From Candidatus Mesenet longicola (lineage in GTDB: Bacteria > Pseudomonadota > Alphaproteobacteria > Rickettsiales > Anaplasmataceae): a DNA stretch of 52,211 bases. The notes beneath the pieces are model-generated. The model was given only the letters and a program-made list of their open reading frames with translations. It was not told the origin of the DNA and made no database searches. Within the stretch, counting starts at the first letter, position 1, and every line of letters begins with the position of its first letter. The position numbers were made by a program, and so were the translations under genes. The stretch lies in the NCBI GenBank assembly GCA_016860565.1, contig BNGT01000001.1:1-52211 (forward strand). The letters run 5' to 3'. Positions 34,353 through 39,428 of the stretch are shown piece by piece.

Positions 34353-36773
34353 ATGACTCTAATCACAGAGAAGAAAGTAACTCCAGTAATGCAAAATTAT
34401 CTTTCTCTTAAGAAAGATTATAATGATTATTTATTATTTTACAGATTGGGAGACTTTTATGAATTGTTTTTTGATGATGCAATAAAAGCCGCAAAAGTTT
34501 TAAATATAGTACTAACTAAACGTGGTTACTATGATGGTAAAGAGATACCAATGTGTGGAGTGCCGGCTCATAGCAGTGAATCATATTTGCATAAATTAAT
34601 AAGCTTAGGATTTAAAGTTGTAATTTGTGATCAATTAGAAACAGCAGAAGAAGCAAAAAAGCGAGGTCATAAATCTGTAATCAGGCGTGATGTAGTACGC
34701 ATCGTTACTCCTGGTACTATAATTGAAGATACGCTTTTAGAAGATAAAAGCTCTAACTATTTAGCATGTATAGTATATGATAAAAAAAAATACTCCATTG
34801 CGTGGGTTGATATCTCAACTGGCGAGTTTTTTTACTCATCTACAAACTCAGATAATCTTAGTAGTGATTTGCTCCGAATTTCACCAAAAGAGCTACTAAT
34901 ATCTGATAGAATGCTAGATTATAATGAAGAAATAAAATCAATCTTGAAAGATTATAAACTATCTTTAACTGAACATGCAGAAAGTTTTTTTGAATGCAGT
35001 AAAGCAAATAAAACATTACTAGAATTCTATAACTTGCAGTCGCTGAAAGCTTTAGGAAATTTCACAGAGTTGGAAATAGCAGCATGTGGGTCGGTGCTGG
35101 AATATGTTAAAATTACACAAAAAGGAAGGTTACCAAGACTTGAGTACCCAAAAGCATTTAAGCAACAAAGGTTCATGCTAATTGACACTTCCGCAAGGAA
35201 GAATCTCGAACTATTTACAACCCAATTTGGTGAAAAAGAAGGATCTTTGCTCAAAGCCATTGATCATACAGTTACTGCCTCTGGGGGACGACTTCTTAAA
35301 CAAACTTTATCATCTCCATTCATTTCACCTGAAGTTATTAATACAAAATTAAAAGCTGTAGAATTCTTCGTAAAAAATAACACTACATGCAAGCAAATAC
35401 GGGAAATATTAAAAAACATTCCTGATATAGAGCGAATTTTATCGCGTTTGCTGCTAGGGCGTGGCTCACCAAAAGATATGTATTTACTGAGTCTTAGTTT
35501 TGATAAAATTAAAAAGTTATCTAAGACTTTATCTTCTATAAACGAACATGAAATTAAGCTTATTTGTAAAAACTTGGGGAAACATGAGGCTTTATTCAAT
35601 GTTTTAGATGAAGCGCTAATTGCGAATAATATTGGTAATGCAAGAGATGGTGGATTTATTAAACCGAAATATAATTCAGAGTTAGATAAGCTACTTTATA
35701 TACAAAATAATGCTAATCAGCTTCTTGATAAGTTGCGTGATTCTTACCGTAATTTGACTAAAATTGGAACCTTAAAAATATCGTATAATAATATTATAGG
35801 CTACTATGTTGAAGTTTCAGCAAATCATAAGATAGATCAAGACATATTTATTCATAGACAAAGCTTAGCAAATTGTTTGCGTTATACCACAACAGAATTA
35901 AAGGAACTAGAGAATAAAATAATTACAGCACGTGAAGAAGCGATAAATTTAGAAATTAAAATTTTTGGTCAATTGTGCGCAAGAATTGCTGAAGAATCTC
36001 AGCAGATAGCACTTACTGCACATGTTATAGCAGAGCTTGATCTAACAACAGCTTTTGCAGAACTTGCTATGCAAAATAATTATGTTAAACCAATAATTGA
36101 TGATAGTTATGCATTCGATATTGTAAAAGGCCGTCATCCAGTAATAGGGGTAAATAACAAATTTGTGGCCAATAACATTAATTTAGCTGGACAGCAGCGT
36201 ATTTATTTAGTTACTGGTCCAAATATGGCTGGAAAAAGTACTTTTTTAAGGCAAAATGCTTTAATTGCAATTTTAGCGCAAATGGGCTCTTTTGTGCCAG
36301 CAGAATATGCGCACATTGGAATTATTGATAAAATATTTAGCAGAGTAGGAGCATCCGATAACATCACCGTTGGCTATTCTACTTTTATGGTAGAGATGAT
36401 TGAGACTGCTTCAATAATCAATCAAGCCACTGAGCGGTCTTTAGTAATATTGGATGAGATCGGTAGAGGTACAGGAATTCACGATGGACTATCAATAGCA
36501 CAGGCAGTAATAGAGCATCTGCATAACATTAACAAATGTCGTGCAATTTTTGCAACTCATTATCATGAATTATCGAAAGTAAGTGCATATTTAAATAACT
36601 TAAAGTGCTTTTACGTAAAAGTAAAAGAATGGGATGGAAAGATCATTTTCTTGCATGAAATATCAGAAGGAGTAGCAGATGAATCATATGGAATACACGT
36701 TGCAAAACTCGCTGGTTTTCCCGATTCTATTTTAAAAAGAGCTAATGAAATTATGAAAGAGCTAACTAGCTAA
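34353..36773 (+). CDS. mutS: DNA mismatch repair protein MutS
   Basis: [35 protein letters not shown] and [11 protein letters not shown]. Confidence 0.99.
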
Positions 36774-37639
36774 AAATATACACCGTTCACATAATTTGCT
36801 ACATACTCAACTAAGCTGCATGCCATAGCATCATTTGTAGAATCAACATTATTTGTTCCTTCTTTCATTTGATGCAAAAAGCACTGATTATCCCCTTTTG
36901 TGATAGTAAATGAAAGAGGATCGTAAATTTGAGTTCCTAAATAGTTATTAAAATAATGGAATTTGTTTTGGCTATCGTAGTAACCAAACTCATCTATGAG
37001 TGATCCCACTTTTTTTTCTCCATTGCCTATCTCATACACATCTACTCCATGCTGCTGAGAGTTAGAGTAGTTATTATCACTTGCTTTAAGGGCAAATGAC
37101 GGATGAGAATGATTTTTATTATAATACTTTGCAAGATCAATGTTTTTTGTGCTCTTTATATCCACTGGGTTTATATGTTCATAATCATCTAAAATACCAT
37201 GGAACTCATGACCACTCTGATTACAGAAGGCTAATTTATATTCACCTTCTTCAGTTTTTACTACCTTTAAAAAGTGATACTGCCTTAGTAGATCAATACT
37301 GGTCTCAGGTTTAAAGCGATCGTAAATATAGATTTTATTATCATAAAAATAATATCCAACTGGTGAAAAAATACTATCTTCATTCTTACCATTTAATTCT
37401 AACCTTGCTTCATGTTTATCATTTGCTATTTTATTTCCTTTGATGAGTTTTGCTTCTGCTTCGTTTGATGAAACACTAGTCTTTTTAATCTTATCTATTA
37501 TCTGATCTAATTTATCAGATAGATCAGGATTTATCTGTCCAGATGTGCTTGAGCTGCTAGCTATAAGTTTTTTTAAATTATTAAAATCACTCCTAAGCTC
37601 ATCAATTTCTTTTTTTATCATCGGCAATGTAATAGCCAT
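36770..37639 (-). CDS. Hypothetical protein: N-terminal coiled coil plus beta-rich head domain (paralog of 38520-39428)
   Basis: AGGGG Shine-Dalgarno; shares YYF, FLKVxK, KNIDLxxYxN and K[IV]GxL blocks with the 302-aa ORF. Confidence 0.85.
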
Positions 37640-37703
37640 AATAATTCCCCTACATTAATTAATCCCCACCTATCACTTTAAAAACAGTATTTATCACATA
37701 AAA

Positions 37704-37991
37704 TTATGAGCCCATAAGCTCAGTAAAACCATCATATATTGCTTTATATATTCCTGTATCCTTGGCATGATCTGTGCCATCAGACTTGCCTACAAGTGTT
37801 TCTAAATCTTGGATTTTAGTTTCTATTGTGCCAACTTTGGTTTCTATATCAGTTATTTTATCGGTTTTATCTTTAATACTATCTATTTTATCGGTTGCAT
37901 CTTTGATATCTTGTATCTTATCTGTATCAGTTTTAATACCACCTATCTCATCAGTTTTTCCTTTAATGTCTTTCAGAGTAATCTTATCCAT
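37704..37991 (-). CDS. Small coiled-coil protein with 10-residue repeats (paralog of 38054-38434)
   Basis: GGAGG Shine-Dalgarno; four IKxxTD[KE]Ixx repeats; ends GIYKAIYDGFTELMGS. Confidence 0.85.
   Translation of the reverse strand: MDKITLKDIKGKTDEIGGIKTDTDKIQDIKDATDKIDSIKDKTDKITDIETKVGTIETKIQDLETLVGKSDGTDHAKDTGIYKAIYDGFTELMGS
37848..37970 (-). repeat. Four degenerate 30-bp tandem repeats in the 95-aa gene
   Basis: tattttatcggtt at 37854 and 37884, tatcttatctgta at 37914, tatctcatcagtt at 37944. Confidence 0.8.
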
Positions 37992-38016
37992 ATTGCCTCC
38001 ATTGTTATAAATACCT

Positions 38017-38049
38017 AAAAATTAATGGCCTTCTTGATACAGAAGGCCA
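38017..38049 (-). terminator. Intra-cluster terminator or stabilising hairpin
   Basis: Perfect 9-bp stem tggccttct/agaaggcca (38026-38049), followed on the minus strand by TTAATTTTT. Confidence 0.7.
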
Positions 38050-38053
38050 AAAT

Positions 38054-38434
38054 CTATGAGCTCATAAGCTCAGTGAAATGATCATTTACTGCTTTAAATA
38101 ACCCTACATCTGCCTTTGTACCATCTACTAATCCTTCAAGATGTACTATTTGCTTTTCCAATTTATAGATCGTTCCATTGTTTTTGGTGAGCTCTTCCAC
38201 TTTATTAGATAATTCTTTATTGCTTTTAACCAGATCTTCTAATTTTCCAACGTCTTTGGAAAGATCTAATACCTTCTGATTTAAAGCTCCAATACCAGTA
38301 GATAACTTATCACTTGTTTCTTTTACTGTTTCTATTGTTTCCTCTATAGGAGTGAGTGATTCCTTAAACCCTTCAACTATCTCGTTTAACTTTTCTCTTA
38401 CTTCTTCTATTGGTGATGGTTTTTTTATTTCCAT
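38054..38434 (-). CDS. Small heptad coiled-coil protein (paralog of 37704-37991)
   Basis: AAGAGGA Shine-Dalgarno; heptad pattern; ends GLFKAVNDHFTELMSS. Confidence 0.85.
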   Translation of the reverse strand: MEIKKPSPIEEVREKLNEIVEGFKESLTPIEETIETVKETSDKLSTGIGALNQKVLDLSKDVGKLEDLVKSNKELSNKVEELTKNNGTIYKLEKQIVHLEGLVDGTKADVGLFKAVNDHFTELMSS

Positions 38435-38519
38435 AATATTCCTCTTATAATTGTTAATTTAAAAATTTGTTTTAAAATATTCACATTAATATCTCGTATC
38501 TCTGTAAAATAATTTGTTC

Positions 38520-39428
38520 CTATATTATACAGTCAACAGGATCTAACTCTAACCCAGAGCGATATTCATTGTAATCATTACACAAAGCATTGTTCTTTTG
38601 GGTTAAATTTTCAATTTGAGAGTATGGATTGTAATTATCCATTATTTTATCCATTTCATCATAATCTATAATAATCTTGTCAAGATCTGAAACAAGAGCA
38701 TCATGTGTAGCGCTACCTTCTCCTGCATGCATTTGATATTTACCATCTACCTTGCTGATAAAAATTTCTCCGTCTATAATACCGCTACTGCTATATGAAT
38801 CATGCTTTCCGTATAAACCATAAAAATAAGTGTGCGGAGCACGAGTTAAATTTGTCATATGCTCAACAGTATATGAAGGTAAGCATCCTATTTTATTATC
38901 ATCAACATCGTATAGACATGCAACGTATACAGGGGACGTATTGCCACGCCCTTGATTGTTTATTTGTGCTTCCTGCTTTATAAAAATTTGTGGTTCTTCA
39001 GCATTAGCATATCTTTCAAGATCAATATTTTTTATTTCGTACTCTTCTATTCCAAATATACGTACACCTTGATTTTCAGGAGCTTTATTATAGATAGATA
39101 GATCAAGTTTATTTTGATCATTTTTTTCAACTTTTAAAAAATAACTTTTTCTCGAATTATTAATAACTTCTCCTGATTCGTCTTTGTCTCTCTTATCAGG
39201 TATTATCCCGTATTTCATACTAGTTGTGACAAGGTACCCAAATCTATCAAAGTAGTAATTAGATATAGGAAAAGTTGCAACTTCCCTACCACTTAATGGC
39301 TCTAATAGTATTATGGGAAAAAATTGGATATCTTCTCCTTTATAATTTTTTCCTTTATAAATATGGTCTATTATCTCTTTGCCATCACCCCATTTTAACT
39401 TGATTACACATCCACACTTATCAGTCAT
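38520..39428 (-). CDS. Hypothetical beta-rich protein (paralog of the 36770-37639 head domain)
   Basis: AAGGA Shine-Dalgarno; shared motif blocks; short C-terminal coiled-coil-like segment. Confidence 0.83.
   Translation of the reverse strand: MTDKCGCVIKLKWGDGKEIIDHIYKGKNYKGEDIQFFPIILLEPLSGREVATFPISNYYFDRFGYLVTTSMKYGIIPDKRDKDESGEVINNSRKSYFLKVEKNDQNKLDLSIYNKAPENQGVRIFGIEEYEIKNIDLERYANAEEPQIFIKQEAQINNQGRGNTSPVYVACLYDVDDNKIGCLPSYTVEHMTNLTRAPHTYFYGLYGKHDSYSSSGIIDGEIFISKVDGKYQMHAGEGSATHDALVSDLDKIIIDYDEMDKIMDNYNPYSQIENLTQKNNALCNDYNEYRSGLELDPVDCII

Follow-up and report, generated by a model that had tools for sequence, protein, structure and literature searches.

Introduction

The means by which Wolbachia and related bacteria adhere to host cells and to vacuole membranes are poorly known. 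Among described fibres, T4 fibritin and the T4 long tail fibre have coiled-coil segments interrupted by Gly loops and are made from several gene products. The trimeric autotransporter adhesins of the YadA/BadA type display a head-neck-stalk modularity and non-heptad coiled coils. Closer to the present system are the Wolbachia collagen-like proteins, known by database labels, in which a Gly-X-Y collagen stalk and an unnamed C-terminal domain form one chain. The collagen-like fibres EPclA and EPclB of E. coli O157:H7 are each one prophage-encoded polypeptide (PMC3368898), and the beta-layer motifs of alpha/beta coiled coils build trimeric structures (PMC4786415).

The DNA analyzed here, termed the window, is the whole of a 52,211-nucleotide stretch of Candidatus Mesenet longicola (contig BNGT01000001.1). 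It contains a cluster of four small genes that has features in common with each of these systems and differs from each. The layout suggested by the Anaplasmataceae genes resembles that of EPclA/EPclB (PMC3368898), but the stalk would be spread over several genes and the context is not that of a phage. The Wolbachia proteins' C-terminal domain is a true homologue of one of the cluster proteins; the window, however, encodes no collagen and has free alpha-helical rods instead. Modularity and non-heptad coils are shared with YadA/BadA, but the cluster proteins have no signal peptide, and the YadA-type anchor PF03895 was found in 0/4 genomes of the genus while the E. coli control was positive. Paralogous Mesenet stalks repeat a motif near the published alpha/beta coiled-coil consensus [aliphatic]-A-T-K-[polar]-[DE], whereas the window rods lack the beta-layer motif and carry heptads and a 10-residue repeat instead (PMC4786415). 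The likeness to T4 fibres is one of analogy, with no sequence match in PHROGs or the PDB.

Results

A four-gene cluster between mutS and nuoH

The initial annotation had described four co-oriented genes at 36770..39428, each with a Shine-Dalgarno sequence and none encoding a signal peptide or transmembrane helix. The interval between mutS and nuoH was found to hold four minus-strand open reading frames of 302, 126, 95, and 289 aa (Table 1), whose translations contain all the motifs quoted in that annotation, and a purine-rich, Shine-Dalgarno-like element is present at every start (AAGGA, GAGGA, GGAGG, and GGGGA). The best 19-residue hydropathy window scored 0.96, 0.53, 0.05, and 0.93 in the 302-, 126-, 95-, and 289-aa proteins, respectively, and 11-residue windows at the N termini gave values of 0.67 or less. 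Because these maxima are low, and on hydropathy only, no transmembrane helix or signal h-region is predicted in the four proteins, and an envelope anchor was not evident in any of them. The stops of the 289-aa gene and mutS overlap by 4 bp, and promoter-like sites occur at chance frequency (19 vs 18.1 expected). None of the four proteins gave a match in Pfam. Gly-X-Y repeats, which are present in homologues, are absent from all four, as is the HExxH catalytic motif, which is confined to other proteins bearing the domain described below.

Table 1. Positions of the cluster genes and associated features in the window.
Feature	Position	Strand	Remarks
Head A gene, 302 aa	38520-39428	-	Variable gene
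Gap, 85 bp	38435-38519	.	Slot of a 109-111 aa gene in all three congeners
Rod 1 gene, 126 aa	38054-38434	-	Heptad-like coiled-coil pattern, then shared C-terminal module
Terminator-like hairpin, 9 pairs then A/T run	38026-38049	-	Separates the two rod genes
Rod 2 gene, 95 aa	37704-37991	-	10-residue repeats, two heptads, shared C-terminal module
Neck + head B gene, 289 aa	36770-37639	-	Short N-terminal coil, C-terminal head domain at 36782-37468

The two heads are distantly related

The outer pair of proteins had been proposed to share a domain, and this was borne out. The head is an unnamed, beta-rich domain of roughly 220 aa that occupies residues ~8-235 of the 302-aa protein, where it is followed by predicted helices at ~240-292. 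Pairwise similarity between head A and head B was weak (BLASTP E 0.001, 30% identity over 76 aa), but the alignment score was reached by 0/2000 shuffles, profile-profile probability was 94-97%, and, in a search of 1042 genes, the 302-aa protein was retrieved (E 3.6e-5) by an HMM from which all head-A rows had been left out. The predicted folds are confident and agree in strand order (pLDDT 81; pTM 0.77 and 0.75). On sequence grounds, the two heads are distant paralogues from distant subfamilies. An internal repeat in the head emerged from 85 rows at 84.7%, as opposed to 20.3% for the reversed control and no more than 0.5% for any of 30 shuffles; from 14 close rows it was undetected (0.8%). The heads contain 6 and 3 cysteines. 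A complex prediction for three copies of head B scored 0.00 and was counted neither for nor against a trimer.

Comparison of head B with the PDB and BFVD in Foldseek gave 0 matches at E <=0.001, and its highest VIA-align score against 48,161 chains was Z 3.7 (rmsd 5.1, 91 aligned). For head A, the best fold comparison reached Z 3.8 (rmsd 2.0, 40 aligned) and BFVD gave 0 matches, while the best E value of the head profile against PDB sequences was 0.11. For these predicted models, the absence of a clear match is no proof of a novel fold.

The head domain is widespread in the Anaplasmataceae

Of 98 Anaplasmataceae genomes, 80 carry the domain; it was detected in 0/234 other genomes of the order. 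Searches of Pfam, NCBIfam, and PHROGs returned no match to it, and neither head matched a known enzyme family, a possibility that the initial annotation had raised against its own proposal. In the titles and abstract openings covered by the literature search, neither the domain nor the cluster was described. In a metagenome scan, 0 of 300 pattern matches were confirmed.

The suggested resemblance to the domain that follows collagen repeats in Wolbachia proved correct: head B matches the Wolbachia collagen caps with a profile probability of 100% and shares a clade with them. In a quick tree, this head-B clade comprises 36 proteins (SH-aLRT 99), of which 12 have collagen runs and none has HExxH; of the 40 proteins outside it, none has collagen and 14 have HExxH. 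Every collagen-capping head of the tree (12/12) thus falls within the clade of the 289-aa head. A collagen gene followed by a neck-plus-head gene was seen at 5/7 Wolbachia loci and 3/3 Mesenet loci retrieved. The N-terminal domain of the collagen gene is weakly linked to the heads (profile probability 24-32%).

Tandem arrays of 2-4 copies were also found, behind M9-like peptidases and within large Anaplasma proteins, and a stand-alone copy lies beside a virB8-like gene. Because of the tandem copies behind peptidases and the stand-alone copies, the head can work without a stalk, and the former indicate that it is not solely a fibre tip. The E. chaffeensis homologues ABD44951 and AAD32553, named 'surface protein' or 'collagenase', and a 671-aa E. 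canis protein have copies of the head domain in common with the window; unlike in the window, the Ehrlichia heads are in tandem after an M9-like peptidase or N-terminal, with no stalk. From its length and repeats, the 671-aa protein is probably Ecaj_0126, which is immunodominant and a predicted secreted effector (PMC7486380). The Ehrlichia invasin EtpE was considered as a carrier and dropped, because the examined Ehrlichia matches lay in genes of ~560-760 and 990-1020 aa, whereas EtpE has 1963 aa (PMC3789761).

The rods share an end module and recur elsewhere

The common end proposed for the inner pair was recovered as a C-terminal module of rod 1 and rod 2 (E 8e-10; score reached by 0/2000 shuffles). 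Rod 1 has periods of 3.54 and 3.42, while rod 2 consists of four Ile-rich 10-residue repeats (period 3.34) and then two heptads, so that the periods of both rods, 3.34-3.54, are those of coiled coils. Profile matches of the rods were to generic coiled coils and all fell under curated cut-offs; matches in PHROGs were likewise generic (E 0.001 or worse). The suggested likeness to fibritin was not upheld, the PHROGs and PDB sequence searches giving generic coiled-coil matches only. The core of rod 1 is Leu-rich, and such a core is compatible with dimers as well.

The rod 2 repeat, present in 4 copies in the 95-aa protein, recurs in 5 copies in a stalk-head fusion paralogue (C72; rod 2/C72 tblastn E 1e-6), and no other gene of the genome has at least two copies. 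An N-terminal [KA]-x-[TN]-L motif was found in 4/9 cluster genes vs 5/1033 others. Both patterns were drawn post hoc, from sequences already seen. The swap of modules between the 95- and 289-aa proteins had been argued from a shared start; the similarity is there, but it is the weakest of the cluster, its score being reached by 39/2000 shuffles. Rods and head-B proteins reached 2% when their profiles were compared, and there is therefore no whole-module homology between them.

The cluster is conserved with variable content

The neighborhood comparison that had been proposed showed the cluster to be conserved as a unit, its gene order being preserved in 3/3 other genomes of the genus and, in one (G001), at a different locus. 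Gene boundaries are the same across the four genomes, and each gene has a conserved C-terminal module. All three congeners carry a fifth gene of 109-111 aa, encoding an N-terminal coil and a short repeated segment, which is missing from the window; head A is absent in congener G003 and shares 32-48% identity with its counterparts in relatives. With head A gone from G003 and the 111-aa gene lacking in the window, the cluster does not depend on a fixed set of parts. The dN/dS of the rods and head A was 0.31-0.96, vs 0.03-0.12 for mutS and nuoH; that of head B was 0.19-0.31, and values were <1 in 12/12 comparisons overall.

A second cluster in the same genome has four coil-like genes and then a stalk-head gene, and other paralogues have head B fused to long stalks. 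In these Mesenet paralogues, a coiled-coil stalk occupies the position of the Wolbachia collagen, as had been anticipated. At least two beta-layer-like motifs were found in only two stalk-head paralogues among 1042 genes. Another head-A copy in the genome is split across two frames. The original interpretation is therefore retained in part. The cluster is conserved, but the proposal of a single hetero-oligomeric head-stalk-stalk-head particle is weakened: relatives have a fifth gene, head A was lost once, the heads belong to separate, distant subfamilies, copies of the domain also stand in tandem or alone, and a hairpin lies between the rods.

Features bearing on export

The pI values are 4.7-5.6, and K/R is absent from the last 10 residues in 16/16 family genes vs 206/1026 others; this test was one of six patterns tried, and the paralogues are not independent. 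PrtD, HlyD, and TolC-type genes are present in the genome, all above curated cut-offs, giving the ABC, MFP, and TolC components. The ends are acidic and non-basic, but they show no enrichment by the published LDAVTSIF criterion (0.44-0.68 vs background 0.53), and the heads contain Cys, while type I substrates are usually cysteine-free (PMC4315096).

Discussion

The cluster is best read as a variant of the collagen and coiled-coil fibres, built on an undescribed, family-wide domain. More specifically, the four genes have about an even chance of encoding parts of an exported trimeric fibre, likely type I secreted, whose stalk is split over several genes. In such a fibre, the 289-aa protein would form the cap at the end, the 95- and 126-aa proteins would serve as segments of the stalk, and the 302-aa protein would likely add an accessory second head. 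Collagen is obligately triple-helical, and from the heads fused to it, which have to trimerise, it may be supposed that the chains here trimerise also. Each protein would be exported unfolded through the PrtD-type type I system, with its acidic, non-basic C terminus as the signal, and the segments would join end to end through their shared N- and C-terminal modules, in the way that a phage long tail fibre is built of several gene products. For the rods' shared C-terminal module, a duplicated export signal is an equally good explanation as docking. The hairpin may lead to more of the upstream product (rod 1) than of the downstream cap, and the ligand bound by the head, host or self, would be met on the surface of the bacterium or within the host vacuole. 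The fibre reading is supported by the placement of head B in a clade whose members end collagen or coiled-coil stalks, by the recurrence of the rod 2 repeat in a fused stalk-plus-head paralogue, and by the conserved gene order. It is weakened because the domain can work without a stalk, gene content is variable, and no anchor is evident.

A possible, though not probable, alternative is that the genes encode co-regulated, separately acting secreted effectors, in which the head is a portable ligand-binding module, the rods bind host coiled coils or membranes, and the shared C terminus is merely an export signal. The peptidase-linked tandem heads do resemble ancillary binding domains, and the variable gene content, the fast evolution of the rods and head A, the division of the cluster by a hairpin, and the prediction of the E. 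canis homologue as a secreted effector (PMC7486380) all fit. However, head B groups with the stalk-capping and not the peptidase-linked heads, the rod 2 repeat serves as a stalk module elsewhere in the genome, gene order is maintained at a different locus in G001, and the second cluster repeats the layout of coils followed by a cap.

It is improbable that the proteins stay inside the bacterium, with the head nucleating trimer folding of collagen-like or coiled-coil partners, or linking partners to an M9-like peptidase for processing, and the rods as internal scaffolds. The lack of a signal peptide and anchor and the known stand-alone heads would suit this, and the E. coli prophage collagens have a C-terminal domain that acts as a module for trimerisation and refolding (PMC3368898). 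The family-wide non-basic, acidic C termini, the rapid evolution, and the 'surface protein' name and immunodominance among the Ehrlichia homologues nevertheless point outward.

Domesticated phage or gene-transfer-agent fibres, carried on particles made from scattered capsid genes, are a still more doubtful source. Segmented trimeric fibres of collagen and coils are typical of phages (PMC3368898), GTA-like genes are reported for Mesenet, Wolbachia, Anaplasma, and Ehrlichia (PMC9203015), and Atlas feature matches were mostly to phage fibre clusters, but with scores of 0.76-0.79, which are at chance level, as was every Atlas score (<0.8). Against such an origin, neither head belongs to a PHROGs family, no relative was found among 50,697 phage records, and 75 candidate stretches from an IMG/VR viral scan yielded 0 confirmed relatives. 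The cluster has the GC of mutS, its flanking genes and those of the congener clusters are housekeeping genes with no prophage context in either, and collagen has 0 occurrences in the examined passages of the phage WO paper.

That a single long stalk-head gene is breaking down here and has left the small genes as its fragments is very unlikely, for although fused stalk-head paralogues and the frame-split head-A copy are known, each gene has its own Shine-Dalgarno-like site and conserved C-terminal module, boundaries are equal in four genomes, and dN/dS was below 1 throughout, including for head B.

Going beyond the fibre reading, a broader and rather unlikely scheme is a hitherto unseen class of Anaplasmataceae surface fibre that has neither signal peptides nor autotransporter anchors. 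In it, an internally duplicated, family-specific head would sit on stalks that can be exchanged, made of collagen in Wolbachia and of alpha/beta coiled coil in Mesenet. The stalk of the present cluster would be polymerised end to end from separately type I-secreted subunits to give a two-headed tether joining the symbiont to the host membrane, and on M9-like peptidases the head would direct the enzyme to trim the fibre or its ligand.

One unnamed domain connects several 'hypothetical' proteins that look unrelated and come from Wolbachia, Mesenet, Ehrlichia, Anaplasma, and Neoehrlichia. Among them are proteins with collagen-like sequence, others annotated as 'collagenases', a surface protein of E. 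chaffeensis, and, probably, an E. canis antigen that is immunodominant. The small, soluble proteins of the window offer an easy entry to structure and ligand work on this head domain. If the fibre reading is true, they would represent a symbiont appendage of a new kind to which several genes contribute products; should the domain alone stand, it would still be a new family-wide module that merits a name.

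Four co-oriented genes with related products

Four minus-strand genes, encoding proteins of 302 aa (head A), 126 aa (rod 1), 95 aa (rod 2) and 289 aa (neck plus head B), lie between nuoH and mutS. An SD-like element was present at each gene and no hydrophobic stretch was found in any of the four proteins, in agreement with the initial annotation, which had described co-oriented genes with Shine-Dalgarno elements and no signal peptide or TM helix. None of the four (0/4) scored above the curated Pfam/NCBIfam cut-offs, and the rods gave only generic coiled-coil matches in profile databases.

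A domain common to the outer pair had been proposed and was recovered by three comparisons. Pairwise similarity of the heads was weak (E 0.001), at a score reached by 0/2000 shuffles; profile comparison gave 94% over 180 columns (97% with more rows); and an HMM of 82 rows, with head-A sequences left out, retrieved the 302-aa protein among the 1042 genes of the genome (E 3.6e-5). The common end of the inner pair also held, the rods aligning at E 8e-10. The start said to be common to the 95-aa and 289-aa proteins was marginal, as 39/2000 shuffles reached its score; a start motif defined post hoc to sequence inspection occurred in 4/9 genes of two clusters of this genome vs 5/1033 other genes, and in 6/15 congener genes. 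The initial observation is thus confirmed, and its interpretation as a fibre system is partly supported.

The head B gene and mutS converge with a 4-bp overlap, as they also do in two congeneric genomes, G002 and G003, leaving no space for a terminator. A third, G001, keeps nuoG and nuoH adjacent (L028), and one Wolbachia-genus locus carries a collagen-plus-head gene beside nuoG-nuoH (L078).

Coordinates of the cluster and related features (G000, own genome; C, contig; L, fetched locus)
Feature	Location	Description
Four-gene cluster	window 36770-39428	minus strand
Head B gene/mutS overlap	window 36770-36773	4 bp, convergent
Hairpin	window 38026-38049	between rods; 9 pairs and A/T tail
nuoH	window 39581-40606	separate from nuoG
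HlyD-family type I secretion adaptor	window 5935-7467	far from its ABC partner
ORFs of 199-435 aa	window 8838-9437, 11691-12413, 22361-23197, 25068-26375, 27480-28097, 29879-30781, 32959-34203, 49185-50477	no Pfam family at thresholds used
Second cluster	G000 C7:26127-29842 (L015:2628-6343)	four coil-like genes (154, 95, 116, 124 aa), then 370-aa stalk-head gene
Collagen/neck-head pair	G000 C28:10654-16370 (L016:2655-8371); L031, L103, L105, L106, L108, L109, L110	conserved, Mesenet and Wolbachia
PrtD-type ABC gene	G000 C19:16371-23062 (L096, L014)	~3.3 kb from stalk-head gene
HExxH protein genes	G000 C8:17821-22320 (L017); C43:7194-11993 (L019)	1499 and 1599 aa; HExxH segments, then head copies
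Second head-A gene	G000 C50:3261-4150 (L020)	broken across two reading frames

Conservation in the genus

Among named relatives, the nearest are beetle endosymbionts assigned to Candidatus Mesenet, together with one flea symbiont that carries the label Wolbachia. The cluster was present in 3/3 congeneric genomes with one gene order, in which head A is followed by a 109-111 aa gene, rod 1, rod 2, and neck plus head B. Its neighbours are nuoH and mutS in G002 and G003; in G001 it occupies another site, flanked by genes that read as aminotransferase-like and ATP-synthase-a-like, and mutS and nuoH have other neighbours. The window has an 85-bp gap in place of the 111-aa gene, for which tblastn gave no match there better than E 0.002, and the first gene of G003 encodes a headless 186-aa protein. 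The rods were found only in the genus (4/4 genomes, plus 4 database proteins); a search of 60 Wolbachia-genus genomes returned 5 weak, coil-only matches. Head B had a pairwise dN/dS of 0.19-0.31, the rods 0.31-0.96 and head A 0.35-0.73, compared with 0.03-0.12 for mutS and nuoH. The cluster genes are real and fast-changing.

A family-wide head domain

By their secondary-structure lists, the AlphaFold2 models of head B (pLDDT 80.9, pTM 0.77) and of the 302-aa protein (pLDDT 81.1, pTM 0.75) agree: strands come first, then a short helix in the middle, further strands and, last, terminal helices. The domain seems to consist of two anciently duplicated halves (internal repeat 84.7%, reversed control 20.3%). 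Searching 1.84 billion representatives with a profile yielded 108 proteins, and the domain occurred in 80/98 family genomes from 6/13 genera; in a second survey it was found in 13/16 family genomes and 0/234 genomes from elsewhere in the order. Labels among the proteins looked up were Wolbachia, Ehrlichia, Anaplasma, Neoehrlichia or Mesenet, except for two labelled Hevea brasiliensis (P0122, P0126), which share a 90% cluster (cluster 1) with proteins of Anaplasma ovis and are probably assembly contamination.

A Pfam scan of 45 of the 108 proteins matched Collagen in 10 and Peptidase_M9 in 4. Five contexts were seen. The head follows collagen stalks in Wolbachia and, in Mesenet, stalks of coiled-coil type; this genome has four paralogues of the latter kind besides the window's. 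Tandem heads follow HExxH peptidase domains, as in a protein of E. chaffeensis whose label is 'surface protein' or 'collagenase'; the 1499- and 1599-aa proteins had no Pfam match at E 1e-4, while homologues do match Peptidase_M9. In Ehrlichia- and Neoehrlichia-labelled loci (L070, L071, L072, L074) a two-head gene is divergent from a peptidase-plus-heads gene, the pair adjoining a solute-binding protein gene, with tandem repeats in some copies. The head also stands alone: many Wolbachia-genus genomes carry a 240-264 aa head gene directly upstream of what we take to be a virB8-like gene (L037, L040, L050, L077), an arrangement that may point to type IV secretion. Finally, the head can sit at the N-terminus: a 671-aa E. 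canis protein has it there and, by length and tandem repeats, matches Ecaj_0126, described in the available text of PMC7486380 as immunodominant and predicted secreted, with a nonimmunoreactive E. chaffeensis orthologue.

A quick tree was built from 88 domain rows, leaving out domains that covered fewer than 130 profile positions or were longer than 330 aa. The clade with head B (support 99) comprised 36 proteins, 12 with collagen and 0 with HExxH, against 0 and 14 among the 40 proteins outside it, a descriptive pattern among non-independent kin and not a test. The six rows that include head A formed a clade of their own (support 96); the two heads therefore did not arise by a recent local duplication.

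Rods, stalks and gene layouts

Rod 2 contains four Ile-rich 10-residue repeats of period 3.34. At least two copies were found in one other gene of the 1042, a 595-aa stalk-head fusion on contig C72 with five, by a pattern derived from the 95-aa protein with C72 already seen; the module that elsewhere serves as the stalk of head B thus occurs in rod 2 as a stand-alone copy. The C72 and C19 genes were the only ones in the genome with at least two beta-layer-like motifs, using a pattern looser than the PMC4786415 consensus; beta-layers form trimeric alpha/beta coiled coils, according to the available text of that paper.

The 95-aa gene of the second cluster aligned with the congeners' 111-aa gene at 29%. 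Downstream of that cluster lie a 411-aa gene without Pfam match and a 5074-aa ankyrin-rich ORF.

A neck-plus-head gene of 430-490 aa came after a collagen gene in 5/7 Wolbachia and 3/3 Mesenet loci, all chosen for holding such head genes. The collagen genes encode 1100-1400 aa, and most begin with an unnamed domain of 300 aa that is weakly head-like (E 4e-7 to 0.01 in 6 loci; profile probability 24-32%), and the neck-plus-head genes have their own unnamed N-terminal domain. If this kinship is real, head-stalk then neck-head would tentatively be an old operon plan, with coils in place of collagen in the window.

Transcription and export

The hairpin between the rods (z -4.9, 0/200 shuffles) is almost the same in G002 and G003; G001 has a different short stem, not significant (44/200 shuffles). 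Transcription may be attenuated at the hairpin or divided into two units by it.

Type I secretion components encoded in the genome are a PrtD-type ABC, an HlyD adaptor and a TolC-type channel. The last 10 residues lacked K/R in 16/16 family and cluster genes vs 206/1026 others, the 16 including paralogues and the pattern being one of six tried; the same held for 13/15 congener genes and 68/88 longer representatives. LDAVTSIF enrichment, a published criterion in the available text of PMC4315096 and PMC10225607, was not seen in these proteins, and cysteines are present in both heads. Type I export would be a plausible route for the cluster proteins. In one Wolbachia-genus locus (L075) a PrtD-type ABC gene is likewise close to a head gene (~3.8 kb), as one is to the stalk-head gene on C19; such nearness may be chance.

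Interpretation

The most likely interpretation of the observed homology, contexts, gene order and repeats, to which we give about even odds, is that the cluster supplies parts of an exported trimeric fibre. It could be instead that the products are secreted effectors acting separately, a doubtful reading that still keeps an appreciable share of likelihood. An internal role in folding or as a scaffold is unlikely, and a domesticated phage or GTA fibre slightly more so, as no phage matches were found for the cluster proteins (neither head matched PHROGs). Decaying fragments are very improbable.

The exported fibre would presumably work like multi-gene phage tail fibres, of which the cluster is not a member. 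Nor does it belong with the dumbbell-shaped E. coli prophage collagen fibres described in the available text of PMC3368898, which would also work alike, and it is not a trimeric autotransporter. A literature search, with subscription papers and supplements outside its scope, found no description of the head domain or cluster; the available text of PMC12369390 mentions Wolbachia collagen-like genes in passing.

On the fibre reading, the cluster would provide a cap, segments of the stalk and, optionally, a second head, which we infer to trimerize, leave the cell, join end to end and bind the host. Such a fibre would be a variant built on an undescribed, family-wide domain.
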